Of a stretch of DNA of 64,000 nt, positions 4,554-28,446 are shown piece after piece (positions within the stretch are counted from its first letter, which is position 1; each line of letters begins with the position of its first letter). This DNA is from Candidatus Iainarchaeum sp. GTDB taxonomy: Archaea > Micrarchaeota > Micrarchaeia > Burarchaeales > Fermentimicrarchaeaceae. The notes below the pieces were generated by a model, which saw only the letters and a program-made list of their open reading frames with translations, did not search any database and was not told where the DNA came from. The stretch spans positions 1,306 to 65,305 of the forward strand of contig JAQTMQ010000003.1 in the NCBI GenBank assembly GCA_028714235.1. Direction: 5' to 3'. The position numbers and the translations under genes were made by a program.

Positions 4554-4619
4554 GTTCTCGTAGGCGTCGGGCGAGCTGTTCAGGTATTGGTAGCCGTAAA
4601 GCGTGTTCCTGTAGCGGGT

Positions 4620-11189: not shown

Positions 11190-11212
11190 GCCACAACCTT
11201 TGCATTCCGCTG

Positions 11213-11223
11213 CTTATTAATTT
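11213..11223 (-). promoter_or_regulatory. TATA-box-like element about 25-30 nt upstream of the giant surface-protein start (leaderless-type spacing)
   Basis: AT-rich AAATTAATAAG (minus strand) in otherwise 65 % GC DNA; position relative to the ATG at 11187-11189. Confidence 0.35.
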
Positions 11224-11329
11224 GCCGTGGGAAATCCGGGGTTTCCGCGGCCCGGGAAGCCCGCGCCATTGAGCGCTGTTGCCGCTGCCGTGCTGCTCTT
11301 AGTAATAATATAGTGCGGCGCGGCCCGCC

Positions 11330-13702: not shown

Positions 13703-13707
13703 TCAAA

Positions 13708-13965
13708 TCATTGCCCTCTTTTGCCGGTGAGGCGGGAGATGAGCGGCGAAAGGATTTTGAGGACCGGGTTCGGGACGGGCTCTGCGACGCGCTTTTTTAT
13801 CGCGTACTGCCGCGTGTGCTCGAACCGTTTCTTCACGCGTAGCAGGAGCACGTTTTTCTCGGCCGTGTACTTGAGCGCGGCTGCCCCGATTTTGGCTATT
13901 TCCCGCTGCACGTCGGCCGCGCCGCTTCCCCCCTTCCCGGATTCCGCCCCGCTTTCGCCCATCAT
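13708..13965 (-). CDS. small hypothetical protein (85 aa), Lys-rich
   Basis: ORF track. Overlaps the upstream 260-aa gene by 4 nt (13962-13965), suggesting translational coupling. Confidence 0.3.
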   Translation of the reverse strand: MMGESGAESGKGGSGAADVQREIAKIGAAALKYTAEKNVLLLRVKKRFEHTRQYAIKKRVAEPVPNPVLKILSPLISRLTGKRGQ

Positions 13966-14744
13966 CTCAACTCGAGGTAGCCGCCCAAAACCATTTTGTT
14001 GAGTATGGCTTCCACGCGCGACTCAACCACGTTGTACTGCTTCGAGAACTCGGGGATGCTTATCTCGTTCCTGTGCACGTCAAGCCAGTCCTGCAGCTTC
14101 ACCATCAGGGTTTCGTCGCTGTAGGCCTCGAGCTCCTTCACGCGCAGGGTTAGCTCGTCGTTCTCGGAGCGCGCCTCGATGAGGTCCTTGCTCATCTTCG
14201 AGTGCTGGGCCTCGAGGAGCTCCGTCTTCTTCTTGAGCTCCGAGAACCCGCGGAGCGCTTCGTCGTATTTCGCGAAGATGGTGTTGTAGTCCGAGGAAGC
14301 GAACTCTGCTATGTCCTTGAGCACGGACTGGAGGAGCTGGTACAGCTGCTTCTGGTCGGCCTCGCATGCGCCGTCGAGCTGCGTGAGGAGGTTGAGGAGG
14401 TGGCGGCACACCTCGATTTTCCGCTTCCTCGCGCTCGCGCCCGGGATGACCGAGTAGGCGACCTCAATCGAGGAGGGCCGCAGGTAGGTGATTGAGAAAA
14501 GGTATGGGCTCCGCTTTATGTCCCTGCTTTCGACGTTGAGCACCGCTACGGTGTCGCCGTCGACCGAAACCTTCAGGAACGAGCTTGCCGAAAGGATGCG
14601 CGAGATTTCGGCCGGCTCCTTCGACCGCGTTGCCGAAAGCGCGAAGCCGTCAACTGCCGGCTCCGCTTTCGCTTCCTCCTGCGGCTTCTGCTGCGCGGCC
14701 TCCTGCCCGGAGGGCTGTGCTGGCGTGGCGGGTATCTGCATCAC
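13962..14744 (-). CDS. coiled-coil protein with C-terminal helix-turn-helix-like segment (ISIPEFSKQYNVVESRVEAILNKMVLGGYLE); candidate regulator or accessory protein of the island
   Basis: ORF track. Heptad-like Glu/Lys/Leu-rich central region. C-terminal wHTH-like pattern. TATA-like TATTTAATTT at 14775-14784 upstream. Confidence 0.5.
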   Translation of the reverse strand: MMQIPATPAQPSGQEAAQQKPQEEAKAEPAVDGFALSATRSKEPAEISRILSASSFLKVSVDGDTVAVLNVESRDIKRSPYLFSITYLRPSSIEVAYSVIPGASARKRKIEVCRHLLNLLTQLDGACEADQKQLYQLLQSVLKDIAEFASSDYNTIFAKYDEALRGFSELKKKTELLEAQHSKMSKDLIEARSENDELTLRVKELEAYSDETLMVKLQDWLDVHRNEISIPEFSKQYNVVESRVEAILNKMVLGGYLELR

Positions 14745-15501: not shown

Positions 15502-17046
15502 TTAGGCGGTTCCCCCGCCCCTCATGAAGTCTATGCGCGAGAACAGGTCGATTATTATCGCGTCCTCTATGCCGATGCTCTTCAGGAACGACGTCGTGCT
15601 CGGCCGCGGCACGTTGTTTTCCTCGAGGTGGTTCACGAACGTGATGACGTCCATCGCCTTCTCGCCTTTCTCGAACTCGTTGAGCATCATGGTGACGGAC
15701 GTGTCCTCCACGCCGAATTCCACGAGCCGGTTCCGGAGCTCGCCGCGCTCGAAGGCGTACGACTTCGGGATGTCCGGGTTCTCGCGCGCCTCTGCGGACA
15801 GCACGGACTCTATCGACATGCGGTATTCCTGGAGCGGCTCCTCGCCGTGGACGCGCTCGAGCAGGAACGTTTCCGGGAACTCGGTCGTGGTCTGGAACGC
15901 CATGTTGACCGCGCACTGGCCCACCCCGAACTTGCCTATCTCGCCGCGCATGAACGGGCTGAAGTTGAGCGAGCCCTGGATGTAGTCGAGGAACTTCTCG
16001 AACTTCACGCGCAGGATGAAGGTCGTCCCGACGTTGGAGAAGATGGCCTCGTTTATGTCCGTCGGGTTCTGCGACGCGACGATGAGGCCGAACTGGTACT
16101 TCCTCCCTTCCCGCACAATCATGATTGCGTCCGAGCGGTCGTCCGAGGCGATTTTCCACGCCTCGTCGAGGACGACGAACACCTTCACGCCCTTCTGGGC
16201 CGACCAGCCCACCGCGCGCATGCGCTCCTTCAGGAACTGCAGGAAGAAGAGGCCTGCAAGGCCCCTTAGGACCTCGTCCGGCAGGCCGGAGAGGTCTATG
16301 TCCACGAGGCCCGCGGTCGTGAGCTCCCCGAGCTTCACGGTCGAAGGCTGCGCGAAGAAGTCGTTCCCCTTCCGCGTGAACTGCTTGACCCGGTAGATGG
16401 CGTTTTCGAGCTCGGCCGGGAACTCGTACGTGCCGGCCCGGAGGCGCTCCTCGAGGATGTTCACGACGTCCTTGAGCGTCGGGGGCCGGACCGCGTCCGG
16501 GGAGTTCTCGTCCGCCGGAGGCTCGTCGGGCCTGAAGCCGGCGCGCACGTACGCCTCCTCGATTGACTGCTCGGTGAGGCGCCTCTGCTCCGGGTACGAG
16601 CCGATGTCCGTGAGTATCTCGAGGGCGCGGATGATTTGCTTGACGCGGTCAATCGGCCGCATCCCGCCGAGGTCGAGCAGGTTGACGAAGTCGCCCTTGC
16701 CGAGCGAAATGATTCTTCCGCCGGTCTGCTTCACCCACGCCTTATATTCCCCCGCCCAGTCGATGATGATGGCGTTGCTGCCCCAGACGAAGGCGGCGCG
16801 GGAAAGGAACGTCTTCACGAAATACGATTTTCCCGCGCCCGTGATTCCGACGATGCAGATGTGCGGGTTCGTGAGCTGCATGAAGCTCCAGTTGAACGGA
16901 ATCTGGAACATCTTGGTGCGCCCCACGTAAATGGAGTTCGCGGGGTCGAGCATCAGGAATTCGGGCGGGGGCTCGGGCGGCCTCATGAACAGGGGCCTCC
17001 TCGACAGCTCCTTGCTCGTTATGCTCTGCGCTTTTATTCCCCCCAT
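15502..17046 (-). CDS. FtsK/HerA-superfamily ATPase of the VirB4/TraC/CedB/HerA type (DUF87-like), 514 aa
   Basis: Walker A GITGAGKS, Walker B VFVVLDEAW, followed by the IVASQNPTD (SQ) motif typical of VirB4/HerA-clade ATPases. ORF track. Confidence 0.75.
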   Translation of the reverse strand: MGGIKAQSITSKELSRRPLFMRPPEPPPEFLMLDPANSIYVGRTKMFQIPFNWSFMQLTNPHICIVGITGAGKSYFVKTFLSRAAFVWGSNAIIIDWAGEYKAWVKQTGGRIISLGKGDFVNLLDLGGMRPIDRVKQIIRALEILTDIGSYPEQRRLTEQSIEEAYVRAGFRPDEPPADENSPDAVRPPTLKDVVNILEERLRAGTYEFPAELENAIYRVKQFTRKGNDFFAQPSTVKLGELTTAGLVDIDLSGLPDEVLRGLAGLFFLQFLKERMRAVGWSAQKGVKVFVVLDEAWKIASDDRSDAIMIVREGRKYQFGLIVASQNPTDINEAIFSNVGTTFILRVKFEKFLDYIQGSLNFSPFMRGEIGKFGVGQCAVNMAFQTTTEFPETFLLERVHGEEPLQEYRMSIESVLSAEARENPDIPKSYAFERGELRNRLVEFGVEDTSVTMMLNEFEKGEKAMDVITFVNHLEENNVPRPSTTSFLKSIGIEDAIIIDLFSRIDFMRGGGTA

Positions 17047-17061
17047 CGGCTCACCAAAAAC

Positions 17062-17889
17062 TCAAAGGCTTGAGACGAAATCCGCCCGCTCCGGCGGGAT
17101 GTAGTGCTCCCATGTGAAGCAGCGCTTCATGTCCTCGCCGCGAAGCGGCTTGATTTCCACGTTGAGCGCGTTCGCGGCGGTGGAGCGGATTTCGCCGACC
17201 TGCCTGCGCGCGGCGGCGATTGCCGCTCCCTCGTTCGCGCCGATTCCCGTCGTCACCGCGTACTGCACGACGCCCATAGGCTTCTCGCCCTCGGCGAGGC
17301 GCTCGAGCATCGCGTTCGCGCGCTGGATTTCGCGCTCCCACTTGTCGAGCGTGAGCGCGTCCGGCTTCCCGCTTTCCCTTTCCTTGCCCAGCTTGTACGT
17401 GGCGGAATACCGCTTGTCCTCTATGCGCTCCCTGTACTTCGCGATGTCCTCGAGGTAGGCTATCAGGCAGAACTTGAACGGGAACTTTATCTGCGAAAGC
17501 GAGCGCTCCCAGAGGTCGACGTACGTCGAGGTCAGCGGCGCCTCCGCGTCGGCCGTGCTGGACTCGTAGAATTTCACCGCCATGTACATCGTCGCGTGGC
17601 AGGTCCCGCCGACGTCCTTGACGACCGCGTCCTGCGACGGCGGAATCCGGTAGCCGCCCCCTATTTCCTCGCTCACCTTGAGGAAGCCGGTGACGAGCGG
17701 CATCGCCATGTAGCCCATCATGAACGAGACGTAGACCGCGCCCACCCCGAGCGCGCCGAGCACCGAAAGCGCGATTGCCATCACGCCCCCGAAAAGGCTG
17801 AGGTTCAGGTAGACCACGCCGACCCCGAAGACCGTGCACGCTATCGCTGCGTACGCGGCGTTCTTTTCGTTCATCCTCAGGTCAACCAA
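17062..17889 (-). CDS. bitopic membrane protein P1 (two N-terminal TM helices plus about 190-aa soluble domain); paralogue of 17900..18691
   Basis: ORF track. Shared motifs with the neighbour (DAVVKDVGGTCHATMYMAVKFYESS vs DVVVKRVGDGYYATMFAAVRIFKSA; C-terminal ...LRGEDMKRCFTWEHY vs ...LTGDDLRRCVDWSYC). Confidence 0.5.
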   Translation of the reverse strand: MVDLRMNEKNAAYAAIACTVFGVGVVYLNLSLFGGVMAIALSVLGALGVGAVYVSFMMGYMAMPLVTGFLKVSEEIGGGYRIPPSQDAVVKDVGGTCHATMYMAVKFYESSTADAEAPLTSTYVDLWERSLSQIKFPFKFCLIAYLEDIAKYRERIEDKRYSATYKLGKERESGKPDALTLDKWEREIQRANAMLERLAEGEKPMGVVQYAVTTGIGANEGAAIAAARRQVGEIRSTAANALNVEIKPLRGEDMKRCFTWEHYIPPERADFVSSL

Positions 17890-17899
17890 GCGGAGTCAC

Positions 17900-18691
17900 C
17901 TACAATTCCTTCACCGAGGCCGGCACGCAGTAGGACCAGTCGACGCACCGGCGCAGGTCGTCGCCAGTAAGCGCGGCGACTTCCGCGTTGAGCGTGGTCC
18001 CTACGGTGCCCCTTATCTCGTTGACGGTCTGCCTCACCGCGGCGATTGCCGTGTCCTTGGTGGCGCCTTTCGCGCTCACCTGGACGTAGGTCAGCATGGC
18101 GCGCGGCCTGTCGCCTGAGGACACCTTGGATATGACGTTGTCCCACATGGATATCTCGCGCTCGAGCGTCAGGATTCTTGCCGGGTCCACCTTCTCCTTC
18201 TCGTTTTCCTTCGCGATTTCCATCTGCGTCCTCGCCTTCCTCTCCTCGATGCTGTCCTTGTAGCGCGAGAGGTCCTTGATGTACACGAGCACGCTGTATT
18301 TCGTCACCGTCTTGAGGCTGGAAACCGCGCGCTCCCAGAGCTCCATGAACGAGAACTTCTCCTTCTCGCTCATCGTGGTCGCGGACTTGAAGATGCGCAC
18401 CGCGGCGAACATGGTCGCGTAGTACCCGTCGCCGACGCGCTTCACGACCACGTCGTCTGTGAGCGGTATCTCGTAGTCCGCCTCCTTGCTCTCTATCACG
18501 CGCTTGCGCTGCGTGAAGTAGGGTATCATCCAGTAGCCCCACTTGTAAAGGACGAACGATACGGGCGCCGCGATTATGGAGACCAGCATCAGGAGTATCG
18601 CGAGCGGGCCGAAATAGTAGCCGCCCGCGAAAACGAGCAGCGAGCAGGCTACCGAGATTCCAATAAGCGCGATGGCGAAAGGGTTTTCCAA
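17900..18691 (-). CDS. bitopic membrane protein P2, paralogue of P1. Probable TTG start at 18689-18691; the ORF-track N-terminus out to 18988 overlaps the upstream gene and is Arg-rich, so probably spurious
   Basis: The upstream gene M1 stops at 18718-18720, so translation must start after that. TTG with AGGGA 5 nt upstream gives an N-terminus (ENPFAIALIGISVACSLLVFAGG) matching P1 architecture. An alternative ATG (MLVSII) lies further in. Confidence 0.45.
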   Translation of the reverse strand: MENPFAIALIGISVACSLLVFAGGYYFGPLAILLMLVSIIAAPVSFVLYKWGYWMIPYFTQRKRVIESKEADYEIPLTDDVVVKRVGDGYYATMFAAVRIFKSATTMSEKEKFSFMELWERAVSSLKTVTKYSVLVYIKDLSRYKDSIEERKARTQMEIAKENEKEKVDPARILTLEREISMWDNVISKVSSGDRPRAMLTYVQVSAKGATKDTAIAAVRQTVNEIRGTVGTTLNAEVAALTGDDLRRCVDWSYCVPASVKEL

Positions 18692-18717: not shown

Positions 18718-19806
18718 CTATATCAGGCGGACCAGCCCCCGCCCGATTTCGGTGATGTCGGCGCCTAATAGTGGCGCCAGCACCTTTATAAAGGTGATAG
18801 TGGCCGCCATGACGATAATCGGGTAGAAAAGCACCTTCAAAAGCACGCCCGGAAGGTACGAGTTCGCGCTGTTGATTCCGGCGGTGATGGACGGGTCGGA
18901 CTGGTCTTCCGCGGTGCGCATCGCGTACTCGGCGTCGTTGTTGCAGCAGGTGAGCGCCGAAACGTCGACGAACGTGAGCCCGGAGCACACGTCCTCTATG
19001 ATGCCTACCTGGTTGGCGAGCGCGCTCTCGTCCTGGCTGATGAGGGAGAGGAATGCAATCATGGTCGGGAACACGAGGAACAGCCCTATGGCTATCGCTA
19101 TCAGCAGGCCGCCTGCCCCGCGCGTCGGGGGGAAGATGCGGAGGAAGACGCCGAGCGGAAGGAAGGTTGCGAACGCGGACGTCTTGAAGAACTCAAGCAG
19201 CCCCTTCCATATGGATACCAGCATGAGGGACTGGGTGATGTACGAGCCCGCTATGTGCGCCGGCTCCACGCGCAGGGGCCGGAGGAACGCGGCCACCGGG
19301 ACGTCTATCCCGACCGCGTTTATGTAGATGGAGAAGGTTGAAAGCGCTTCCACCGGGAAGTTGCAGAAGTAGTACGTGCGGTAATAGTATTGCAGCGCGT
19401 TCTGCAGGTCGTTCAGGTACGCGTCGGAAATCGCGAACGGGTTCACGCCGTGGCCGAGGATGGTCCCGAACAGCTGGTCGCTCATCATCAGTTGCGTCAT
19501 GGATATGAGGCCGAGCACGAGTATGAGGCTCGCGAGCGACTGGTAGAACTCGGCCTTCGCCCAGTTCCGGAGGCTGTGCATGTCGAACGCGATTGCAATC
19601 ATGTACGCGAGCGCGACCACGGAGAACGAGATTGTCACCGCGAGGAGCGCCGACGGGCCCCATATCGCCCATGTGGCCGAAATCGCGTCAACCTCCGCCT
19701 GGAACCATTGCGGCCGCGGCGTCGGGCTTTCCTGGGCGAAGGCGGCCGCTGCGAAGAAGGCGAGGACGAGCGCCGAAAATGCAATCCGCTTCAGGCCAGG
19801 CATCAT
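18718..19806 (-). CDS. polytopic membrane protein, paralogue M1 of a six-member family (signal peptide plus at least 6 TM; candidate VirB6/TrbL/CedA-like channel component)
   Basis: ORF track. Signal peptide ...AAAFA/QE. Family motifs WAKAEFYQ and LPLGVFLRIFPPTRGAGGLLIAIAIGLFLVFP. C-terminus GADITEIGRGLVRLI. Confidence 0.6.
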   Translation of the reverse strand: MMPGLKRIAFSALVLAFFAAAAFAQESPTPRPQWFQAEVDAISATWAIWGPSALLAVTISFSVVALAYMIAIAFDMHSLRNWAKAEFYQSLASLILVLGLISMTQLMMSDQLFGTILGHGVNPFAISDAYLNDLQNALQYYYRTYYFCNFPVEALSTFSIYINAVGIDVPVAAFLRPLRVEPAHIAGSYITQSLMLVSIWKGLLEFFKTSAFATFLPLGVFLRIFPPTRGAGGLLIAIAIGLFLVFPTMIAFLSLISQDESALANQVGIIEDVCSGLTFVDVSALTCCNNDAEYAMRTAEDQSDPSITAGINSANSYLPGVLLKVLFYPIIVMAATITFIKVLAPLLGADITEIGRGLVRLI

Positions 19807-20972
19807 ATCAGCCTCGTGATGTTGCTCACGTCCACCTCTTCCCCGAGCATCGCCGAAAGCCCGCGTATGAACGAGACCATGACCAGGAACACCGCGAACG
19901 GCACGAACACCGCGCCGAGAACCAGGAGCGAAAGGAAGCCGCAGACCGGCTGCATCACCGAATCAAAAATGCCTTTCATCCAGTTGGACAGGTCAAACGA
20001 CCCGCCCGGCGTGCCGGTCGGCAGTGCGGACATGGCGTCCTCGTCGTACAGGGCTGCCACGCTCGCGTCGATGTTGTCCTGCAGTATCCCGTAGAACAGT
20101 ACGACCGACATCGGGTAGATGAAGTAGAACCCGAGCGCGAGCGCGATGAGCGCGCCCCCGAAGCCGCGCGTGATGCCGAACGAGCGCAGCAGGACCCCTG
20201 CAACCAGCAGCGGGCCGAAAAGCCGCGAAAACATCTTGAGGAGGATTATTTGCGCGATGATGATTATTTGCGAGCTCGAGATGGTTATCATCGCGATGTT
20301 GAACATCTGCCCGAGGTTCGCGAACCCCTGGCCGAAGCTCACCATGAAGCCGAGCCCGTTCGGGTTGAGCGCGAGCGTGGTCGAGCTTGCGGCCGAGATT
20401 GCCATGTTGATGACTATCACCGCCCAGAAGCCGGCGCTCACGAGGCTGAGGAAGTGCTCGAGGTTGTAGAGCGCGACGCTGTACGGGTTGCAGCTGCCCC
20501 ATTGTATTTCCGAGTCGTAGTACCCCACGCTCAATACCGCGAGGCTCGGCGCGCTTCCGGGCGTGCACGCCGCGCCGATGACGTCCGCCTGGAGGCCGCA
20601 CCCGAAGCCGACAATCCAGACGAGCAGCCCGGCGAGGACGAGCATGGCGATGCTTTCGTAAACCTGGTTTTTCGCCCATATCCTGAGCCCCGCGTGGTTC
20701 ATGAGGCCCGAAAGCGCGTAAACCACCCCGGCGGAAGCGATGACGACGAGCAGGGTGAGCACGAGAACTCCCTGCCACGAGGTCCACATGGACTGGAGGC
20801 CGCCGGACATCGCGTCGCTTTCGCATGCGGGCGGGAACGGGTTTGACCCGCTCACCGCCCTCCCGCCCGAGGTGCAGCCGGCGAGCATCGCCGCCGCTAG
20901 CGCCGCGAGCAGGAAGGGCGCGAACCGCGCCAGCCTCGGCTTTTTGCGTGGAGGGGACGGCATTGCAATCAC
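19803..20972 (-). CDS. polytopic membrane protein, paralogue M2; N-terminus has lipobox-like LAGC
   Basis: ORF track. Motifs WAKNQVYE and LRSFGITRGFGGALIALALGFYFIYPM. C-terminus VDVSNITRLI. 4-nt overlap (ATGA type) with M1 and with M3. Confidence 0.6.
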   Translation of the reverse strand: MIAMPSPPRKKPRLARFAPFLLAALAAAMLAGCTSGGRAVSGSNPFPPACESDAMSGGLQSMWTSWQGVLVLTLLVVIASAGVVYALSGLMNHAGLRIWAKNQVYESIAMLVLAGLLVWIVGFGCGLQADVIGAACTPGSAPSLAVLSVGYYDSEIQWGSCNPYSVALYNLEHFLSLVSAGFWAVIVINMAISAASSTTLALNPNGLGFMVSFGQGFANLGQMFNIAMITISSSQIIIIAQIILLKMFSRLFGPLLVAGVLLRSFGITRGFGGALIALALGFYFIYPMSVVLFYGILQDNIDASVAALYDEDAMSALPTGTPGGSFDLSNWMKGIFDSVMQPVCGFLSLLVLGAVFVPFAVFLVMVSFIRGLSAMLGEEVDVSNITRLI

Positions 20973-21985
20973 AGGAGCTTGGAAAGCGCGCTCACGTCTA
21001 TCTCTCCGCCGAACACGGTGGCCATTTCCTTCATGAACGTGAACGTGAGCGTGAAGTTCAGCACCGGGAGCAGTATGGAAACGATGACTATCAGGTAAAC
21101 CGGCGCCAGCATCCAGCTGATTACGTACGTCATCAAGCTGGACCAGGTCACCGTCAGGTCAAGCGACAGGATTGGCGGCGGCGTGTCGGCAAGGCCCGCC
21201 TGGTCCTGCTGGACGAGCGGTATCTCGAATAGCACGAGCATGGGGTAGACCACGTAAAGCCCGAGCATCAGCGCGAGCATCGCCGCCCCGGCCGCGCGCG
21301 TGAAGGAGAACGCGCGCAGGGCGAGCCCGATGGGAAGCAGGAGTATGAGTTTTGTGCGGATGAACGTGAGGATTATTATCTGCCCCCACAGCGAGCCGAG
21401 CCCCATGCCCGCGAACAGCGTCATCATGTTCGTGAACTCGTTTATCGGGAAGAGCCCGGCGAGCGGGGCGAGCGCGAAGCCGGTCTGGTAGGGCATGAGG
21501 TAGAGCTGGTAGCTCGTCAGCACGCCGGTCGTGAAGTTCAGTATGGTCAGGAACGATTCCCAGAGCCACATGGCGTCCCGCTTTGCGATGAGGAAGCAGG
21601 ACACGTAGTCGAACGCGGTCGAGAAAGGCGGCTTCTCGTCCGTAGAGCAGGCGTAGGAAAGGCCGGTCAGGGACACGTCAACCCAGCCGCCCCCGCCCGA
21701 GCCGATGCAGGAGGTGCATGGCGCGTCCGGCGTCGTGCCCATGGCCCCGACCTGCGCCGCGACCCCGTCGACTATCGCGAGCCCGATGAATATGAGCACT
21801 ATGAGGGCGACGCTTGCGAAGCCCTGGTAATACTCTTCCTTCGCCCAGAGCGTCACGCGGGGAATCCTGAGCCCGGCTCCCACCATGTACGCGAGCCCGG
21901 CTATCGCGAACACCGCGGAAACCGCGGCGAGAGTCACCGAATACCAGTCCGAACCCAACGCCATAATCGCACCGGAACCAATCAT
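20969..21985 (-). CDS. polytopic membrane protein, paralogue M3 (no cleavable signal peptide apparent)
   Basis: ORF track. Motifs WAKEEYYQ and LRAFSFTRAAGAAMLALMLGLYVVYPM. C-terminus IDVSALSKLL. Confidence 0.6.
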   Translation of the reverse strand: MIGSGAIMALGSDWYSVTLAAVSAVFAIAGLAYMVGAGLRIPRVTLWAKEEYYQGFASVALIVLIFIGLAIVDGVAAQVGAMGTTPDAPCTSCIGSGGGGWVDVSLTGLSYACSTDEKPPFSTAFDYVSCFLIAKRDAMWLWESFLTILNFTTGVLTSYQLYLMPYQTGFALAPLAGLFPINEFTNMMTLFAGMGLGSLWGQIIILTFIRTKLILLLPIGLALRAFSFTRAAGAAMLALMLGLYVVYPMLVLFEIPLVQQDQAGLADTPPPILSLDLTVTWSSLMTYVISWMLAPVYLIVIVSILLPVLNFTLTFTFMKEMATVFGGEIDVSALSKLL

Positions 21986-23457
21986 AACAGATGCGTCAGC
22001 CCGGCTATTTCAATGTCGCCTCCGAGCAGCGGCGAAAGCGTCTTGATGAACGAAACCGTCACCAGTCCTATTATTATCGGAATCATGAAGCCGGGCACGA
22101 TGAGCTGCCCGACGACCGAGATGACCTTGTAGAGCCACGCGAACTCGAGCTCGATGTTCAGCGGGTCCCGGTCGAAAATCCCCATCAGCTCGGGCCCGAC
22201 GCCAATCGTGAGTATCGTGGCCACCTGGGGCGTGCAGAAACGGACCGGGCAAACCTCCTTCCTGTACTGCTCGGCCGCCTCCGGGGTTTTCAGCCAGTCC
22301 GAAGCCGACGCCCACCACGGCCGCGTCGTGTCGCAGGTGCAGCTTTGGACGTCCCACTTGTCAAGCCAGAGCTGCGACTCGTCGAACATGTAGTTGTCCA
22401 TGAGGAGGATGTACATGAGCGGGTAAACCGTGTACAGCCCTATCGCTACCGCCATCAGGAGCCCGCCGAGCCGCCTCGTGAAGAAAAGCGTGCGCAGGAT
22501 TATGCCGAGGGCGAGCAGCACCGGGAAAACGGATTCCTGGATCATGCGGAGCATGAATTCCTGCGCGATGAAGCTCGCAATCCACGAGAAAAGGAACGGC
22601 ATTATGCCCGCAACCGCCTCGGAAAGCATCGTGACCCCGGCGTAAGGGCTGACGCTGAAGCCGAAGGCGAGGTGGCACGGAATCGGGCACGGGAACACCG
22701 GCATCTGCCCTGTTTCCTGGTTCGGGGAGATGTCAATGAACTTGCTGAACCCGGAAAGCGCCCTCATGCGGATGTTCAGGTTGAGCAGGTTGTCCGCCTG
22801 GATGACCATCGCGCCCTGCGAGAAGTTGAGGATTTTCCTCGCGCACGTTATGTGGTAATTCGGGTCGGACGGGGCGGTCGGCATCGCGCCGAAAGGCGAG
22901 ATGCCTCCGGCCTGCATGCTCGCGGGAAGCTCGCCGATGAGGTTCGCGCAGCTGAGCGTGCACCGGTTGTTGACGCACGTGAAGCCGTTGCTGCACGCCG
23001 CCGCGCCCCCGCCGGACGGAGTGATGCACAGCTGGCCGAGCGGGCAGTCCAGGTCCTGCGCGCATCTCGCGGGCTCTCCGGGCGGGCGGCAGTCCGCGTC
23101 GCCGCCGCAGGCTTCCGGGAACGGCGAAACCGCGGTTTTTGACGCGGCAAGCTGGCCGGAGAGGTTGCCGAGGCCGTACACGAAACCGATTACGAGCGTG
23201 AGTATGAGCAGGCTCGCGATTCCCTGGTAAAGCTCGTCCTTCGCCCACACGGTCAGCCTGCGCAGCCCGAAGCCCATCCCTATCATGTACGGGATTGCGG
23301 GAAAGAAGAGCGCTATCACCGCGGCGGTGAGCGCGACCGCGCCCCAGTTCTCCCCGTTTGCGCCCCAGATGTCGGAAAAGGTCGTGGGCGACGCTGCGCA
23401 AGCGGCGCATGCGAACAATGAGAGCGCGAGCAACGCGGTTCGCGGCGAAATCCCCAT
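21982..23457 (-). CDS. polytopic membrane protein, paralogue M4, with Cys-rich extracytoplasmic insertion (CGGDADCRPPGEPARCAQDLDCPLGQLCITPSGGGAAACSNGFTCVNNRCTLSC). Start trimmed to ATG at 23455-23457
   Basis: The ORF-track N-terminal 239 residues are Arg-rich and overlap M5 in another frame. The internal Met gives a signal peptide MGISPRTALLALSLFACAACAAS. Motifs WAKDELYQ and LRTLFFTRRLGGLLMAVAIGLYTVYPL. Confidence 0.55.
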   Translation of the reverse strand: MGISPRTALLALSLFACAACAASPTTFSDIWGANGENWGAVALTAAVIALFFPAIPYMIGMGFGLRRLTVWAKDELYQGIASLLILTLVIGFVYGLGNLSGQLAASKTAVSPFPEACGGDADCRPPGEPARCAQDLDCPLGQLCITPSGGGAAACSNGFTCVNNRCTLSCANLIGELPASMQAGGISPFGAMPTAPSDPNYHITCARKILNFSQGAMVIQADNLLNLNIRMRALSGFSKFIDISPNQETGQMPVFPCPIPCHLAFGFSVSPYAGVTMLSEAVAGIMPFLFSWIASFIAQEFMLRMIQESVFPVLLALGIILRTLFFTRRLGGLLMAVAIGLYTVYPLMYILLMDNYMFDESQLWLDKWDVQSCTCDTTRPWWASASDWLKTPEAAEQYRKEVCPVRFCTPQVATILTIGVGPELMGIFDRDPLNIELEFAWLYKVISVVGQLIVPGFMIPIIIGLVTVSFIKTLSPLLGGDIEIAGLTHLL

Positions 23458-23462
23458 CCAAA

Positions 23463-24473
23463 TCAACCGAACGGCGACGGAAAGTTTTGCGAGAAGACTT
23501 TCGTCATGCTCTTGATGAACGCGTAAAGTATGGCGAGGTCGAGCAGGGGCAGGAACACCGCCTGCGGCACGAGGATGGCGACTTTCTGCACCTGCTCCAT
23601 GGGCGCGAACATCTGGATGACCGAGCGCAAGGCGTTGAATGCTGCGAACGGGCCGACGAACACCGATGCCGAGCCGCCCGCCTGCCCCCAGTCGCTCGCG
23701 CTCTCGTACGCGAAGCCGACGTCCCCGATGCTTGCGACCACGGCGCCGTTGAACACGTAGAGCATGGGCCACACGATGTACGCGCCGAGCCCTATCGCGA
23801 TGAACGCCGCCCCCGCCGTCCTGAGGAACGGGAACACGCGGAAGAACACGCCCATCGGGAGCACTATCTTGAACGCCACCGCCTGCGCAAGGTTGAGGAG
23901 AATCTCCTGCAGGAGGAGCGACGAGAAAAGGGTCGAGGCCAGCAGGAAAAGGAAGTTCAGGAGCGCGTTTATCGCGCTCAGCCCCGCAAGCGGCTGGAAG
24001 CCGCTGGGCGGCGCGCCGACCGGGACGAAGAACGCGCCTGCGACGGAAGCGTAGATGGCGAGCAGGAAAAGCTCCATTGCCACGTTCAGGGTTTTCTGCC
24101 ATATCAGGTCGTTCAGGTAGCTCCTCGCCGCGGAGAACGGGTCGCCGCCCGCAAGCGAGAACGTGGCCGTGCACGCGATTACCCCGAGCGAGGACACGAG
24201 GTAGATTATGAAGAAGGATATGAGCGCCTGGTAGAATTCGTCCTTGACCCAGAGAATCCAGTCAAGCCTCGAGAGGAGCACCGCGGACATGTAGACGATG
24301 GAAAGGAAGAGCATTATCGCCATGATGCCGGACAGCGCGAGCGAAATCCACGTGCCCCCGCCCTGCGTCCACTCCGAATCAAGCGTGCAGAGCTCCGCCG
24401 CATGGCACGTGCCGCACAGCGCAAGCAGTAGGAAAACCGCGGCTGCAAACGTTTTCATGCGGCGCGGATTCAT
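23463..24473 (-). CDS. polytopic membrane protein, paralogue M5 (start at MNPRRMKTF...; ORF-track start at 24536 would overlap M6)
   Basis: Signal peptide MNPRRMKTFAAAVFLLLALCGTCHA. Motifs WVKDEFYQ and FRVFPFLRTAGAAFIAIGLGAYIVWPM. M6 stop at 24478-24480. Confidence 0.55.
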   Translation of the reverse strand: MNPRRMKTFAAAVFLLLALCGTCHAAELCTLDSEWTQGGGTWISLALSGIMAIMLFLSIVYMSAVLLSRLDWILWVKDEFYQALISFFIIYLVSSLGVIACTATFSLAGGDPFSAARSYLNDLIWQKTLNVAMELFLLAIYASVAGAFFVPVGAPPSGFQPLAGLSAINALLNFLFLLASTLFSSLLLQEILLNLAQAVAFKIVLPMGVFFRVFPFLRTAGAAFIAIGLGAYIVWPMLYVFNGAVVASIGDVGFAYESASDWGQAGGSASVFVGPFAAFNALRSVIQMFAPMEQVQKVAILVPQAVFLPLLDLAILYAFIKSMTKVFSQNFPSPFG

Positions 24474-24477
24474 CCAA

Positions 24478-25566
24478 TCACAGCCCGAGCTTTGACATGC
24501 CGAACACCTGCGGGTCCCCGCCGAGCGCAACCGCAAGCGACCTGAACGCGGTCACGGTGATTATGAAGTCCAGGATGAAGAGCAGCATTATGGAAACGAA
24601 CAGCTGCACCGCCGGGCGGAGGACGTTGACCACCGCGTGCACGTTCTGGCCGCTGAGTATCGCGAACGGCGTGAGGATGCTGCCCAGCAGGAATCCCGTG
24701 ATGCCGCCGAGGAGCGACCCCGGGCTGACGACCTGGAGGAGCACGGGGTCGAACGCGTAAAGCATGAATATCTCGTTTGAAAGCGCGAGGGCCAGCGGGT
24801 AGACGAAATACAGGGTGAGCGCCATCGCGATTACGGTGCTCCCGAGCCTCCTCGTGAAGGTGAAGGAGCGCATCACGAGCCCAAGGGGAAGGAAGAACGA
24901 GAGCATGTGGTTTTCCGCAAACGTCAGCAGGATGAACTGCGCGGCCACCGCGAAATACGCGCTGAAAAGCACGGAAAAGAAGGGCCGGAGCCCTGAAAGT
25001 ATGTCGCTGAGTCCCGAAAGCAGTGCGACGCGCGTGCCGTCGCGAACGTAAACGACGACCGCTCCGGGGGCGAGCAACGGAAGCGGGATGGGGATGAACA
25101 TGCTCACCGAAAACGAGCTCAGCATCGCGTACTCCTGTATCGTGCCGACAGAGTTCGTGAGCACCGTCGCGACGCTGCCTTGCGCGCGGTCAAGGTACGC
25201 CCTCCCGGCCTGGATGTGGTCGCCGCCCGTCAGCGCAATCGAGATGTCGCCGACGGCAATGACGAGCGTGAAGACCACCGCGAGAAGGAACAGGTTGAGC
25301 ACGGCCTCGAAGAACTCGTTTTTCGCCCATTCCGTAATCTTGCCGAGCCCGAACGCCGCGCCCATCATGTAGGCGAGCCCTGCGAACATGAAGCCGAGCG
25401 ACGCGGCGAGAAGCGCGGTCGGCACCCAGTCGCCGAAAATTGCGGCGCTCGGGGGCAGCGCCTGCGGGGTCGCGGACGCCTGGGGCGTCGCCGGGCACGC
25501 GGCCGGGGGGAGGATGGCGAGCAACGCTAGCAAGGCGGCTAACGCGCGAAAACGTGCTGGCGGCAT
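24478..25566 (-). CDS. polytopic membrane protein, paralogue M6 (first gene of the six-gene block)
   Basis: ORF track. Motifs WAKNEFFE and MRSFTFTRRLGSTVIAMALTLYFVYPL. TATA-like element 25589-25600 upstream. Confidence 0.6.
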   Translation of the reverse strand: MPPARFRALAALLALLAILPPAACPATPQASATPQALPPSAAIFGDWVPTALLAASLGFMFAGLAYMMGAAFGLGKITEWAKNEFFEAVLNLFLLAVVFTLVIAVGDISIALTGGDHIQAGRAYLDRAQGSVATVLTNSVGTIQEYAMLSSFSVSMFIPIPLPLLAPGAVVVYVRDGTRVALLSGLSDILSGLRPFFSVLFSAYFAVAAQFILLTFAENHMLSFFLPLGLVMRSFTFTRRLGSTVIAMALTLYFVYPLALALSNEIFMLYAFDPVLLQVVSPGSLLGGITGFLLGSILTPFAILSGQNVHAVVNVLRPAVQLFVSIMLLFILDFIITVTAFRSLAVALGGDPQVFGMSKLGL

Positions 25567-25588
25567 CGGTGGGAATTAGGCGCGCATC

Positions 25589-25600
25589 TTTTATTATAAT
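25589..25600 (-). promoter_or_regulatory. TATA-box-like element (ATTATAATAAAA on minus strand) about 25-30 nt upstream of the M6 start codon; candidate promoter of the six-gene membrane-protein operon
   Basis: Isolated AT-rich dodecamer in a GC-rich 161-bp intergenic spacer; spacing to the ATG at 25564-25566. Confidence 0.4.
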
Positions 25601-25727
25601 GTTTGCAGGGCCGGCGGCCGCGCCCCTGCCGCCCGATGGAAACGGAAACCGGAAAACTAGGGATTTGGAAAAGAAACGGAAAAAAAGATGGGACGGGCCA
25701 AACCGCGTCTGGCCCCTGGCTCGGCGT

Positions 25728-26042
25728 TCAGGAACCGCTCATTCCCACGAGGAAGTCAACAAGGAACGGGGCTATGATGACTATCAGGATTCCGACTACC
25801 CCCCCGACAATCATCGCCATCGCCCAGTTCTGTGCCTTCTGCCTAGTCGCCGCGTCGAATACCTGCCCTACCGCGTACACGAGCCCCGCGAGGATGAAGA
25901 GTGCGAGCACGACTATGGGAACGATGTCCTTAATCAGCTGCACCAAATCCAGGAGCGACGTGTTGATGTTGCTCGCCAGACGCGAAGTGGCAAAAACTGC
26001 GCCGCTTGCAAGAAGCGGCGCCAGTGCGCGAAACGACCTCAT
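25728..26042 (-). CDS. pilin-like small membrane protein, copy C (about 105 aa): signal peptide plus two hydrophobic helices separated by a basic loop (VirB2/TrbC/CedA1-like layout)
   Basis: Internal Met (MRSFRALAPLLASGAVFATS...) of ORF 25728..26309. The longer N-terminus overlaps copy B out of frame. Conserved core LAGLVYAVGQVFDAATRQKAQNWAMAMIVGGVVGI. Confidence 0.5.
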   Translation of the reverse strand: MRSFRALAPLLASGAVFATSRLASNINTSLLDLVQLIKDIVPIVVLALFILAGLVYAVGQVFDAATRQKAQNWAMAMIVGGVVGILIVIIAPFLVDFLVGMSGS

Positions 26043-26065
26043 ACCAGTCACCGGTACCTGCCCGC

Positions 26066-26413
26066 TTAGCAGATTGGAACCGAGGCTCCCGAAAGCGCGG
26101 GCACGAACGCACCGATTATGATTGGCGCGATCACCGCGAGTATGATGCCGATTATGCCGCCGAGTATGAGCGACATCGCCCAGCCCTGTGCCTTCGCCTT
26201 CGTCTCGGCGCCGAACGCCTGGCCTGCGGCGTACGCGAGCCCAGCAAGGAAGAAGAGCACGAGCGCCAGCGTCGGAAGCACGGCAACCACGATCTGCTTG
26301 ACAGAGCACAGCGCCGAGTTGATTGGGCCGACGCTGATGGTGCTCGTCGCGAACGCGAGTCCGCTGAACGCAGCCAACACTAATGCCAACATTGCATATC
26401 TTTGCAGTTTCAT
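26066..26413 (-). CDS. pilin-like small membrane protein, copy B (115 aa)
   Basis: ORF track. Sec-type signal peptide ...GLAFA/TSTISV, then two hydrophobic helices with loop QAFGAETKAKAQGW. Perfect TTTAAATA about 80 nt upstream. Confidence 0.65.
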   Translation of the reverse strand: MKLQRYAMLALVLAAFSGLAFATSTISVGPINSALCSVKQIVVAVLPTLALVLFFLAGLAYAAGQAFGAETKAKAQGWAMSLILGGIIGIILAVIAPIIIGAFVPALSGASVPIC

Positions 26414-26493
26414 CCCTTACCCCCCCATAGCGGCCAACCGCGGCTTCCGTGCCGCGACGGCGCTAATCCTGAACCAGAATTGTGCATTCCGTA

Positions 26494-26501
26494 CTATTTA
26501 A
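26494..26501 (-). promoter_or_regulatory. consensus archaeal TATA box TTTAAATA (minus strand) between pilin copies A and B, upstream of copy B
   Basis: Exact TTTAWATA match on the minus strand in the 117-bp intergenic region. Confidence 0.4.
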
Positions 26502-26530
26502 ACCTTTCCATGAGTGTATTAATGTACGCC

Positions 26531-26881
26531 TCATGCGCAGGTTGGAACCGAGGCTCCCGAGAGCGCGGGCACGAACGCACCGACCATTATCGGCGCCATC
26601 ACGGCAAGCATTATGCCGACTATCCCGCCCACGATGAGGGACATCGCCCAGTTTTGCGCGCGCGCCTTTGTCTCGGCGCCGAAGACCTGCCCGGCGGCGT
26701 ACGCGAGCCCGGCAAGGAAGAAGAGCACGAGCGCGAGCGTCGGCAGGACCTGCACCACGATCATCCGGACGGAGCATAGGGCCGCCGTTATCGGGCCCGT
26801 GCTGATTGAGCTGGACGCAAAGGCAACTGCGCTGAATGAAACCAGCATTGACAGCAGCAGAACGGACCTTTTTGGTTTCAT
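26531..26881 (-). CDS. pilin-like small membrane protein, copy A (about 116 aa from MKPKR...; the ORF-track start at 26911 is also possible)
   Basis: ORF track. Signal peptide ...AVAFA/SSSIST. Core about 85 % identical to copy B at the nucleotide level. Confidence 0.65.
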   Translation of the reverse strand: MKPKRSVLLLSMLVSFSAVAFASSSISTGPITAALCSVRMIVVQVLPTLALVLFFLAGLAYAAGQVFGAETKARAQNWAMSLIVGGIVGIMLAVMAPIMVGAFVPALSGASVPTCA

Positions 26882-26942
26882 GAACATCCCCTTTCGCGGC
26901 GGAGCATTCACTTTCCCGCCGCTGCCTGCTTATGGGTAAAGG

Positions 26943-26998
26943 ATTATTTAAGCCTATCCCAGATTCGGGCGGTTTTGGGCGCGAAAGGCGTTTATAGG
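26943..26998. promoter_or_regulatory. divergent promoter region: ATTATTTAAG (26943-26954, for pilin copy A on the minus strand) and TTTATAGG (26991-26998, about 24 nt upstream of the plus-strand ATG at 27019, leaderless spacing)
   Basis: Two isolated AT-rich TATA-like elements in a 107-bp GC-rich spacer between divergently oriented genes. Confidence 0.35.
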
Positions 26999-27018
26999 AC
27001 AAAATTGAAATTGTTTCC

Positions 27019-27630
27019 ATGCATGGGAAGGGCTCGTCGCGCAAGCGCTCGGTTGACGCTTTCCTCAAGTCGCACGGCAGGACGGCCAAGGAGATTGACG
27101 AGAGCGAGCTCCGCGCGCTCGCCGGCCCGGAAAGCCGCCCGCGGAAGGGGAAGGCGGCGCCGGGCCCGGCTTCCGGCGGGGGCGCGGCGGACGGGCCGGG
27201 AAGCCCGCGCGACGCGGTTGACGGCCTTGACTGGCGGATAAGCCCGGAAAAGGACGTGGAAAAGGGCGCCGGCACGCCGTTCGTGGCTTTCTCCTTCATT
27301 TTGTTCGCCGCGGCGGCTGCGGCCGGGGCTTGCGTCATGCTCCTGCTTTTGCCTGGGCGCGTCGGGTCCTCGCTTGCGAGGGCCGCGCCGTTCATTGACG
27401 TCAGGAGCGGGATGACGCTCGCGGGATTCGTTTCGGCCAACCCGCTCTGCTTTATCGGCGGGGTGCTTGCGCTCGTCGGCTTCCAGGCGCTGTATTACGC
27501 GTTCAACCTGCTTGCGAAGAAGAGGAAGGGCGGCGGCTACGAGCGGAAGGGAGTGACGCTGTCCATCCTGCTTTCCGTCGCAACGCTTGCCGCTGCGCTG
27601 GCGTTCGCATGGTATTTCAACCTTGTCTAG
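27019..27630 (+). CDS. hypothetical membrane protein (203 aa): Gly/Pro-rich cytoplasmic N-terminus plus about 4 TM helices
   Basis: ORF track; hydrophobic segments FVAFSFILFAAAAAAGACVMLLLL, LCFIGGVLALVGFQALYYAF, LSILLSVATLAAALAFAWYF. Confidence 0.45.
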   Translation: MHGKGSSRKRSVDAFLKSHGRTAKEIDESELRALAGPESRPRKGKAAPGPASGGGAADGPGSPRDAVDGLDWRISPEKDVEKGAGTPFVAFSFILFAAAAAAGACVMLLLLPGRVGSSLARAAPFIDVRSGMTLAGFVSANPLCFIGGVLALVGFQALYYAFNLLAKKRKGGGYERKGVTLSILLSVATLAAALAFAWYFNLV

Positions 27631-27684
27631 GGGGCGGCATGAACCGGCCTGCGCCGCATCCCCCCCTTGCCCTGGACCGCGTTC

Positions 27685-28446
27685 TCATCTAAGGATGGTG
27701 TACTTCGTCAGGTAGATTTGGGTCTGGTACATTACCAGGAACGGCATTATGAACAGCGAGTTTGCGACGAGGACCAGGACCTGGGTGAAAGGGATGACCG
27801 CGCGGAGGTTCATGAACAGGAGGTCGATTGCCGAGATTGACGCGATTGCGAGCAGGAGCCAGAGCAGCACGAGCTTGGGCTGCTTCCCGATGACCGCGAC
27901 GCTTGTCTTGAGCGCCTGGAACGGGGCCTGCTCGTCTATGACGATTGCGGCGGGCGCGAAGAACAGTGGCGCCGAGACGATTATGCCGGCAACCGGGAGG
28001 AACCAGTTGTTGAGGGCGAACTCGTACCCCACGAGGTCCACGATGAGCAGGAGCGCCCACGCGGTGAGGTAAAGCCAGAACACGTTGAGCACGTATTTGC
28101 CTATGCTGTTGATCACTTCCTTCTTCACGCTCGTGAAGGTGCGCTGGGACTTGATTACCAGGTTTATCGCGACGATGGCGAACGACACGAGGAACAGCGA
28201 CAGGAGGAACGCTGCGACGATGACCGCCGCGTCGAGCATGGTGAGGTCCACGTACATGCTGCCCGTGCGGAGGAACGTCGCCCCGAGGGCGAGGTAGGTC
28301 GGCATCGGCGACAGGAGGGGTATCGCGAATGCGAGCAGGAAGGGTATCGAGAAGAACGATACTATTTGGACGTTGTCAAAATACGCGTCCGCAGTGAGTT
28401 TCAGCGTGTCTGCCATCTTGAACCGTAGTTTATTTTTTGGCCGCAA
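27685..28446 (-). CDS. polytopic integral membrane protein (at least 6 TM), unknown family; start could be the internal MADTL at 28416
   Basis: ORF track. Uniformly hydrophobic with protein-like composition. TATA-like TTTATATA at 28447-28454 in the divergent spacer. Confidence 0.5.
   Translation of the reverse strand: MRPKNKLRFKMADTLKLTADAYFDNVQIVSFFSIPFLLAFAIPLLSPMPTYLALGATFLRTGSMYVDLTMLDAAVIVAAFLLSLFLVSFAIVAINLVIKSQRTFTSVKKEVINSIGKYVLNVFWLYLTAWALLLIVDLVGYEFALNNWFLPVAGIIVSAPLFFAPAAIVIDEQAPFQALKTSVAVIGKQPKLVLLWLLLAIASISAIDLLFMNLRAVIPFTQVLVLVANSLFIMPFLVMYQTQIYLTKYTILR

Follow-up and report, generated by a model that had tools for sequence, protein, structure and literature searches.

A 64,000-nucleotide (nt) stretch of contig JAQTMQ010000003.1 from Candidatus Iainarchaeum sp. 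(hereafter the window), which is archaeal by its Pfam matches to eRF1, RFC and isoleucyl-tRNA synthetase (IleRS), contains three neighbouring minus-strand genes encoding small membrane proteins, designated here pilins A, B and C. The contig belongs to a metagenome-assembled genome, and its protein PHF51_01070 is 100% identical to the product of a neighbouring gene. A preliminary description had placed them within positions 25728-26911 and read them as a tandem triplication of a VirB2/TrbC-like pilin gene; open reading frame (ORF) calls bear out the coordinates (Table 1). The ORF of pilin A extends upstream to a GTG at 26911, and we take its start to be the ATG at 26881, because a Shine–Dalgarno-like motif (AAAGGGG) favours that codon. 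Here we describe the three genes as predicted prepilins and examine the cluster of secretion-like genes that they head.

Each protein begins with a basic n-region and a hydrophobic core. Two strongly hydrophobic helices follow, with a short basic loop between them; the preliminary description had recognized this arrangement, and translation and hydropathy support it in all three copies. In A and B the loop sequence is GAETKA(K/R)AQ(G/N)W, and C has DAATRQKAQNW. Other elements of that description hold for two of the copies: A and B have a Sec signal peptide ending in AFA, two cysteines and the tail ALSGASVP, whereas the signal peptide of C ends in VFA and the protein lacks both cysteines and terminates in FLVGMSGS. 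In pilin A, the signal peptide ends with AFA immediately before SS, ahead of two transmembrane (TM) helices, and the cysteines are Cys36 and Cys115. The AlphaFold model of pilin B has a predicted local distance difference test score (pLDDT) of 81 and helices at residues 3-19, 29-66 and 69-108. Signal-peptide cleavage in A, B and C is predicted from the AxA rule alone. Proteins of the archaeal type IV pilin and archaellin class carry a class III signal peptide, a short basic leader that is cut before a single N-terminal hydrophobic helix, and are assembled by PilB/PilC-type machinery. The trio instead combines an n/h/c signal peptide, which carries an AxA site, with a pair of TM helices, and the ATPase near the pilins is of the VirB4/HerA type, not PilB, in hidden Markov model (HMM) scans.

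Family membership was assessed through homologues in other genomes. A word-indexed search returned 84 database homologues at E<=1e-3, and all those with an organism name came from Candidatus Micrarchaeota or Micrarchaeia; in an exhaustive profile search, 579 clusters at 50% identity matched the pilin family, and one distant member belongs to the Micrarchaeota genome Candidatus Anstonella stagnisolia. Given these homologues, we regard all three predicted copies as real genes. When 57 homologues were aligned with A, B and C (n=60), 48 of the 60 sequences matched PF18895 (T4SS_pilin) and 32 matched PF04956 (TrbC/VirB2) at E<=0.01, with best E-values of 1.2e-7 and 2.2e-8, respectively. One member, P0050 (the first pilin of surveyed locus L010), lies above both curated cutoffs (32.1 versus 27.9 and 31.8 versus 26.6 bits) in near full-length alignments, its match spanning positions 10-98 of the 98-position TrbC profile; two others, P0027 and P0034, exceed the PF18895 cutoff, and some homologues already bear an automatic TrbC/VirB2 annotation. 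Within the window, C scores 25.9 bits against the PF18895 cutoff of 26.6 and A scores 14.3 bits, whereas the family HMM gives 120-146 bits for the three proteins (146 for A). Because family sequences match both Pfam models, VirB2/TrbC homology of the trio is supported transitively. The pilin identity proposed in the preliminary description thus stands by way of the homologous family and the shared architecture, and not through the Pfam scores of the window copies, each of which is below cutoff. By sequence, we assign A, B and C to the prepilins of the VirB2/TrbC superfamily, in a clade that is confined to DPANN archaea among the named matches and fetched loci. The sole PDB match of the pilin profile, the TM segment of an alphavirus E1 protein (E 0.9), was dismissed as chance. 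A representative search also recovered metagenomic poly-pilin proteins (P0085, P0086, P0087 and P0089). P0085 (1071 aa) has an N-terminal domain of ~390 aa followed by seven pilin-like hairpin repeats, each with a Cys pair, and the pilin profile matches P0089 in four stretches and P0087 in two.

The copies are not a collapsed or expanded assembly artefact, a concern attached to the preliminary description, because two Logan assemblies, from two sequencing runs, carry identical sequence and genes. An 8.5-kb contig in SRR22315509 is 100% identical to window positions 24495-28413 and yields the same calls of 116, 115 and 104 aa; SRR22315508 is 100% identical to positions 26020-27180, which cover A and B only. 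Collapse or expansion of A and B by an assembler was unlikely in any case, as the two copies differ by 23% in DNA.

The trio is better described as an ancient pilin pair with one later duplication than as a single tandem triplication. A and B are 74% identical in protein sequence, and A and C are 41% identical in one pairwise comparison. At the DNA level, A and B share 77% identity over 345 nt and 85.0% over nt 139-345 (207 nt), in agreement with the earlier estimate of about 85% over more than 200 nt. The A/B duplication arose within this lineage, since the two are nearest each other, at 74% against <=57% to any compared copy in other genomes. Window C, by contrast, is 57-59% identical to the second pilins of loci L010 and L012 and 35-37% identical to A and B, and we take it to be an old Cys-less minor type with counterparts in those two genomes. 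In the Sv326-like clade, between-genome identities (Sv326_1 versus L004_1, 73%; Sv326_2 versus L004_2, 73.5%) exceed that within the genome (Sv326_1 versus Sv326_2, 58%), which identifies the first and second pilin genes by sequence as two orthologous types; in the window's own clade, the second type is the Cys-less, short-tailed form. A further, much younger duplication of the first type occurred in Sv174 (Micrarchaeota; locus L008, 9989-11252), which has three pilin genes and 95.6% amino-acid identity between the duplicates. Because this event was independent, pilin copy number shifts repeatedly in the phylum.

The preliminary description had also placed the pilins under diversifying selection. 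For A versus B, synonymous divergence (dS) is 0.70 and the ratio of nonsynonymous to synonymous divergence (dN/dS) is 0.24, which fits purifying selection better. Synonymous divergence is uneven along the pair: dS is 1.34 over codons 1-43, falls to 0.67 over codons 44-100 and is 0.08 for the final 15 codons (tail versus N-terminal part, Fisher p = 4e-4). The preliminary description had taken the A/B duplication to be recent or homogenized by conversion; the low tail value fits partial gene conversion, or nucleotide-level constraint, at the 3′ end of the two genes.

The wider family varies strongly at its ends. Among 216 full-length members, 197 have one Cys before helix 1 and another in the C-terminal tail, 11 have neither, 6 have the C-terminal Cys only and 2 the N-terminal Cys only (one of these sequences is truncated), so that the two residues co-vary (Fisher p = 1e-12). 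On the predicted hairpin, both fall on one side, the extracellular one, and flank two hypervariable segments: entropy is 0.33 bits in the loop, 0.7-0.8 in the helices, about 2.0 in residues 24-43 and 2.8 in the tail. We infer that a disulfide joins the two exposed ends in Cys-type pilins; an intersubunit disulfide in the polymer is the alternative. Conservation of the loop and variability of the ends would be expected with the loop facing the lumen and the ends making up the outer surface, an arrangement supported for F, T, Ced and Ted pili (PMC9905601). Head-to-tail cyclisation has been reported for the pilins TrbC (RP4) and TrhA (H-pilus) (PMC13434634, PMC11722321), and the putative disulfide would be a functional analogue of it.

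The features around the pilins suggest how they might be transcribed (Table 1). The box TTTAAATA occurs once in the window (expected 0.24), and, with both strands of the window (63% G+C) searched, the pattern YTTAAATA is matched only by TTTAAATA and CTTAAATA (expected 0.48), two sites being reached in 6 of 100 shuffles. Copies with TATA boxes of their own, as first described, are therefore A and B, whereas C has none. The start of pilin C lies 23 nt past the stop of B and is preceded by a Shine–Dalgarno-like GGTGA, and because of this short gap and motif, C is probably co-transcribed with B. The T-rich tract TTTTTTTCCGTTTCTTTTCC is a candidate archaeal oligo-T terminator that would close the pilin transcription unit, and ATTATAATAAAAG suggests a separate, near-leaderless machinery transcript starting at the first downstream gene, B6-1. 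The pilins would then form one or two transcription units with their own terminator, apart from the machinery transcript. Immediately upstream of pilin A is a divergent 203-aa gene with TM segments (27019-27630, + strand); at the matching spot, other Micrarchaeota have a 120-125-aa reverse-strand gene, with no similarity detected at E<=1e-5.

Table 1. Pilin genes, candidate transcription signals and downstream machinery genes in the window
Feature	Positions	Strand	Description
TATA-box-like CTTAAATA	26945-26952	-	64 nt upstream of pilin A ATG
Pilin A	26531-26881	-	116 aa counted from MKPK; Cys-containing prepilin type (ORF and translation)
TATA-box-like TTTAAATA	26495-26502	-	A-B spacer, 82 nt upstream of pilin B ATG
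Pilin B	26066-26413	-	115-aa prepilin; lineage-specific duplicate of A
Pilin C	25728-26042	-	104 aa; Cys-less, short-tailed minor type
T-rich tract TTTTTTTCCGTTTCTTTTCC	25667-25686	-	~40 nt past pilin C stop (sequence reading)
AT-rich TATA-like box ATTATAATAAAAG	25588-25600	-	~21 nt ahead of ATG of the first VirB6-like gene (B6-1)
B6-1	24478-25566	-	362-aa polytopic VirB6-like protein; first ~100 residues prepilin-like
B6-2	23463-24473	-	Tandem paralogue of B6-1
B6-3	21982-23457	-	Tandem paralogue of B6-1
B6-4	20969-21985	-	Tandem paralogue of B6-1
B6-5	19803-20972	-	Tandem paralogue of B6-1
B6-6	18718-19806	-	Tandem paralogue of B6-1
Y1	17900-18691	-	Two N-terminal TM helices and ~200-aa domain
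Y2	17062-17874	-	Two N-terminal TM helices and ~200-aa domain
ATPase	15502-17046	-	514 aa; HerA/FtsK superfamily, VirB4/CedB type; Walker A GITGAGKS at residues 67-74

Downstream of the pilins, the six B6 proteins are related to one another (all-against-all BLASTP values mostly between 1e-7 and 1e-17; weakest pair 3e-5) and have the motifs W..LL...AYM.G.......WAK.E.Y and LP.G..LR.F..TR..G..IA.ALGLY.VYP in common. The best PDB fold match of a B6 protein is VirB6/TrwI; the AlphaFold model of B6-1 was only moderate, because its alignment held just nine sequences. Among the matches listed, word-indexed searches with B6-1 gave at least three homologues by single sequence and at least three by an eight-sequence profile, and the B6-family profile had no match in PDB sequences. 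Over its N-terminal ~100 residues, B6-1 matches the pilin profile in register (HMM i-E 2.6e-4; in hhalign, 85 columns with E 2.2e-4 and a probability of 45%), and in the reverse direction the B6 profile retrieves the Cys-less pilins of L010 and L012. A sequence relation of the same kind was reported for CedA/CedA1 and VirB6/VirB2 by Beltran et al. (PMC9905601), and the natural poly-pilin fusions described above bear on a possible origin of polytopic VirB6-like proteins from pilins. An 882-aa protein in Candidatus Fermentimicrarchaeum limneticum Sv326 raised the idea that B6-2 and B6-3 are one frameshifted gene, which we rejected because only the C-terminal 300 residues of that protein match B6-2 and because B6-3 has its own ATG at 23457. 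In the Sv326 genome (L001, 11808-14456), the second VirB6-like paralogue has an N-terminal extension of ~585 aa that is not in the window; only its residues 586-878 align, to window positions 23481-24389.

Between the B6 genes and the ATPase lie Y1 and Y2, which are 32% identical to each other (E 4e-44) and are both kept at this place in other loci. Searches of Pfam and PDB sequences gave nothing meaningful for either; possible identities are VirB3/VirB8-like components or an equivalent of the VirB4 N-terminal domain. An ORF at 17051-17839, considered as the gene upstream of the ATPase, proved to be an out-of-frame shadow with a third-position G+C fraction (GC3) of 0.43; the true gene there is Y2, with a GC3 of 0.89 over the ORF 17062-17889. 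The ATPase itself sits 9 kb downstream of the pilins on the same strand. It matches the Pfam models DUF87 (5e-13), AAA_10 (5.7e-12) and TraG P-loop (2.1e-6) and, in NCBIfam, CedD (1.2e-18), CedB (3.3e-17) and several VirB4/TraC models (to 1e-10), all far under their cutoffs. Against PDB sequences it matches HerA proteins, and its residues 59-333 align with the C-terminal domain of VirB4 (4ag5). With HerA scores comparable, we place it in the VirB4 family at superfamily level only. In a DRTY-6 Micrarchaeia genome (L003, 19097-20342), the counterpart has 1047 aa and is an intein-containing version, because Intein_splicing and LAGLIDADG_3 domains are present. Past the ATPase, positions 1893-14744 (- strand) encode proteins of 260 aa, 790 aa, 2189 aa (secreted, with a weak NosD-like beta-helix match) and 886 aa (with a C-terminal TM helix), and these may serve the system as adhesins or cargo. 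Scanning the window for Rfam families and tRNA genes gave no matches.

The same assembly of genes recurs in related genomes. We surveyed loci from one genome per GTDB species with search patterns that favour close relatives, a design that sets no outer limit to the family, and obtained 20 loci: 17 labelled Micrarchaeota or Micrarchaeia and one each labelled Aenigmatarchaeota, 'ainarchaeum' and 'archaeon'. The common order (Sv326, DRTY-6 and others) is IleRS, PMT glycosyltransferases, 2-3 pilins, six B6, Y1, Y2 and ATPase, and nearly all related loci have two or three tandem pilins. The B6 count is six in every Micrarchaeota locus with enough flank (the window, L001, L003, L004, L005, L007, L008, L010, L011, L012, L021 and L023), and this constancy points to a hetero-oligomer of fixed composition, possibly one that pairs with a hexameric ATPase. 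IleRS, a radical-SAM protein and PMT glycosyltransferases adjoin the cluster in distant Micrarchaeota too, GC content is even across the window, and HMM scans of ORFs from 1.9 to 46.9 kb revealed neither a relaxase nor a coupling protein nor an integrase. Because of these housekeeping flanks, the synteny, the uniform GC and the scan result, we read the cluster as a domesticated chromosomal system and not as a mobile element. Towards the end of the window, at 59-63 kb, there are A-type ATPase-like genes, judged from ORF translations alone.

Among described systems, the cluster would work like, and is probably related to, the archaeal Ced (Sulfolobales: CedA1, CedA and CedB) and Ted (Thermoproteales: TedC, TedA and TedB) systems, each likewise a chromosomal, minimal set derived from a type IV secretion system (T4SS) in an archaeon (PMC9905601). 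In all of these, a gene for a VirB2-like pilin immediately precedes one for a polytopic protein of VirB6-like type (a tentative assignment here), and a VirB4-like ATPase is encoded nearby; like TedC, the pilins have a cleavable Sec signal peptide with an AxA site (predicted here), and as in CedA/CedA1, the polytopic protein has a pilin-like N-terminus. By sequence, however, the cluster is not a member of Ced: in an NCBIfam scan that covered pilins B and C, B6-1 and the ATPase, the ATPase scored 62 bits for CedB (cutoff 700) and 67 for CedD (cutoff 600), and pilins B and C and B6-1 had no match to CedA/CedA1; the libraries used hold no model for Ted. The cluster also differs in having six VirB6-like paralogues and two or three pilins where Ced and Ted have one of each, in the Cys pair, in the two additional bitopic paralogues Y1 and Y2, and in its DPANN host lineage, and HerA, Rad50 and ParA genes were not seen beside it in the scanned ORFs. 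Ced and Ted proper are characterised by DNA import for repair and by induction through UV or DNA damage. We found no publication that describes this Micrarchaeota system or a VirB2-like pilin of DPANN archaea, or that links DPANN archaea or Micrarchaeota with VirB2, Ced or Ted, which is absence of evidence only, given partial literature coverage; giant proteins of nanohaloarchaea have been reported to contain VirB4-like domains (PMC10266531).

Bacterial pilins of the VirB2/TrbC (PF04956) and T4SS_pilin (PF18895) families belong to the same length class and show the same order of elements, a signal peptide and then two helices with a short loop between them. Members of this superfamily polymerise into tubular filaments that usually contain lipid. 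Members of the family studied here match both HMMs full length; the same two models served to find VirB2-like pilins in Patescibacteria (PMC12102498). The archaeal cluster differs in its host and in having no outer-membrane core parts, and its pilin ends are probably disulfide-joined, where those of bacterial pilins are cyclised (TrbC, TrhA) or free. Another parallel is offered by the vir-homologue T4SS of Rickettsiales (Anaplasma, Rickettsia), in which the virB2 and virB6 families are expanded, with 8-15 tandem VirB2 and 4 tandem VirB6 paralogues in Anaplasma phagocytophilum (PMC3556328, PMC2653234). Anaplasma VirB2 varies ahead of its N-terminal Cys and near its C-terminus (PMC3556328), so that the resemblance to the DPANN family takes in an obligate cell-associated lifestyle, tandem VirB2/VirB6 paralogues and the pattern of variability. 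The Rickettsiales systems are, however, diderm bacterial ones with a full VirB7-11/D4 set, and their paralogues are thought to serve antigenic variation, whereas A and B are under purifying selection and the VirB6-like count is fixed across Micrarchaeota.

Taken together, we consider it likely, with a probability of roughly 0.7, that the trio are VirB2/TrbC prepilins heading a T4SS-derived chromosomal cluster that is conserved across Micrarchaeota and makes a contact or exchange tube or pilus. Each prepilin would be inserted in the membrane by the Sec pathway and cleaved after AFA or VFA, leaving a hairpin of ~86-93 aa with both ends extracellular and the basic loop (GAETKAKAQGW) cytoplasmic. 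In A and B, the Cys just ahead of helix 1 and the C-terminal Cys would then form a disulfide stapling the exposed ends. The VirB4/CedB-like ATPase may extract the pilins from the membrane and polymerise them on a platform of the six VirB6-like paralogues, and the product would be a tube or short pilus with the conserved loop lining the lumen and the variable ends on the surface. A and B, with separate promoters, might be alternative or co-assembling major subunits; C, the old Cys-less type that probably shares a transcript with B, would be a minor subunit and may act as initiator or base. By analogy with DNA import by Ced and Ted, the likely role would be contact and exchange of macromolecules (DNA or other cargo) with a partner cell.

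Several observations weigh against this interpretation. No window pilin reaches a Pfam gathering cutoff, and B has no pilin match at all; the profile finds no sequence match to the solved pilins VirB2, TraA, TrbC, CedA1 and TedC among PDB chain sequences, and fold searches with the pilin model return generic helical hairpins only. The pilin/B6 profile match has a probability of 45%, and scores of this kind are prone to inflation by hydrophobic composition. In some searches the ATPase is equally near HerA and VirB4, and it is without the VirB4 N-terminal domain. Finally, the one cryo-tomography study of a related co-culture assigned intercellular nanotubes to the host and not to the DPANN cell, on which only thin filaments that could be archaeal pili were seen (PMC11329633).

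The low scores would be explained if the trio were unrelated small two-TM proteins, such as transporter subunits, whose pilin matches stem from hydrophobic composition; the non-specific fold searches and weak matches to Yip1, DUF3007 and cytochrome bd subunit II point the same way. Each unrelated family is, however, matched by at most 6 of the 60 aligned sequences, whereas two independent pilin models are matched end to end by most family members, some above cutoffs, and the VirB4-like ATPase and the top VirB6 fold match are independent of the pilin sequence. We give this explanation very little weight. We regard it as similarly improbable that an integrated conjugative element uses the cluster as its mating apparatus, with the copies reflecting mobile-element turnover. 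VirB4-type ATPases and VirB2 pilins are ancestrally conjugative, and the variation between two and three copies, to which Sv174 and this lineage each contributed a duplication of their own, would suit such turnover. The shared chromosomal neighbourhood in distant Micrarchaeota and the uniform GC speak against it, as does the scan in and around the cluster, in which neither a relaxase nor a type IV coupling protein was found to indicate a self-transmissible conjugative (mating-pair formation) T4SS, nor an integrase.

A different reading accepts the VirB2 superfamily and concerns the product: the proteins may stay membrane-embedded or serve as a short envelope-spanning channel element, forming no extended filament. 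Such a role has long been assumed for monoderm T4SSs without visible pili. It would accord with the HMM scans, in which no recognisable VirB5, VirB7, VirB9 or VirB10 was found in the cluster, and since the pilins resemble the B6 N-terminus, they may pack with B6 in the membrane; Patescibacterial and Gram-positive systems also have VirB2-like genes without documented long pili (PMC12102498). Variable ends bracketed by invariant cysteines nevertheless fit an abundant surface polymer better, separate strong-looking pilin promoters fit such a polymer over a stoichiometric channel part, and the archaeal CedA1 and TedC form pili, as does Gram-positive PrgF according to a 2025 preprint. On balance we hold a short channel to be the main rival but unlikely, and favour the tube or pilus.

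With their tiny genomes, DPANN archaea rely on touching other cells. Published accounts describe the protein components of the filaments and tubes between these cells, and of their attachment structures, as unknown (PMC11420986, PMC11329633), and a T4SS-derived cluster in the core chromosome, with pilin genes that look abundantly expressed, supplies concrete candidate genes for these cell-cell structures. Once the tools are applied, the identity of the pilins comes as no surprise; the testable candidates come from the conserved machine that accompanies them. The cluster would extend domesticated conjugation machinery, represented by Ced and Ted, to a third, very different archaeal lineage, would add a new pilin solution with a disulfide in place of cyclisation, and adds further cases of pilin/VirB6 sequence relatedness, including natural poly-pilin fusions. 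More tentatively, the locus may be a DPANN-side conduit to a partner cell, used for exchange, in which one VirB4-like hexamer builds a disulfide-stapled VirB2-type pilus or tube upon a mixed platform of six distinct VirB6-like paralogues, one for each protomer. If this doubtful model were true, the constant number of six paralogues and the presence of two or more pilin types throughout the phylum would reflect a fixed asymmetric architecture unseen in described T4SSs, and the filaments or tubes that cryo-tomography has shown linking Micrarchaeota-type cells with other cells would gain a molecular identity.

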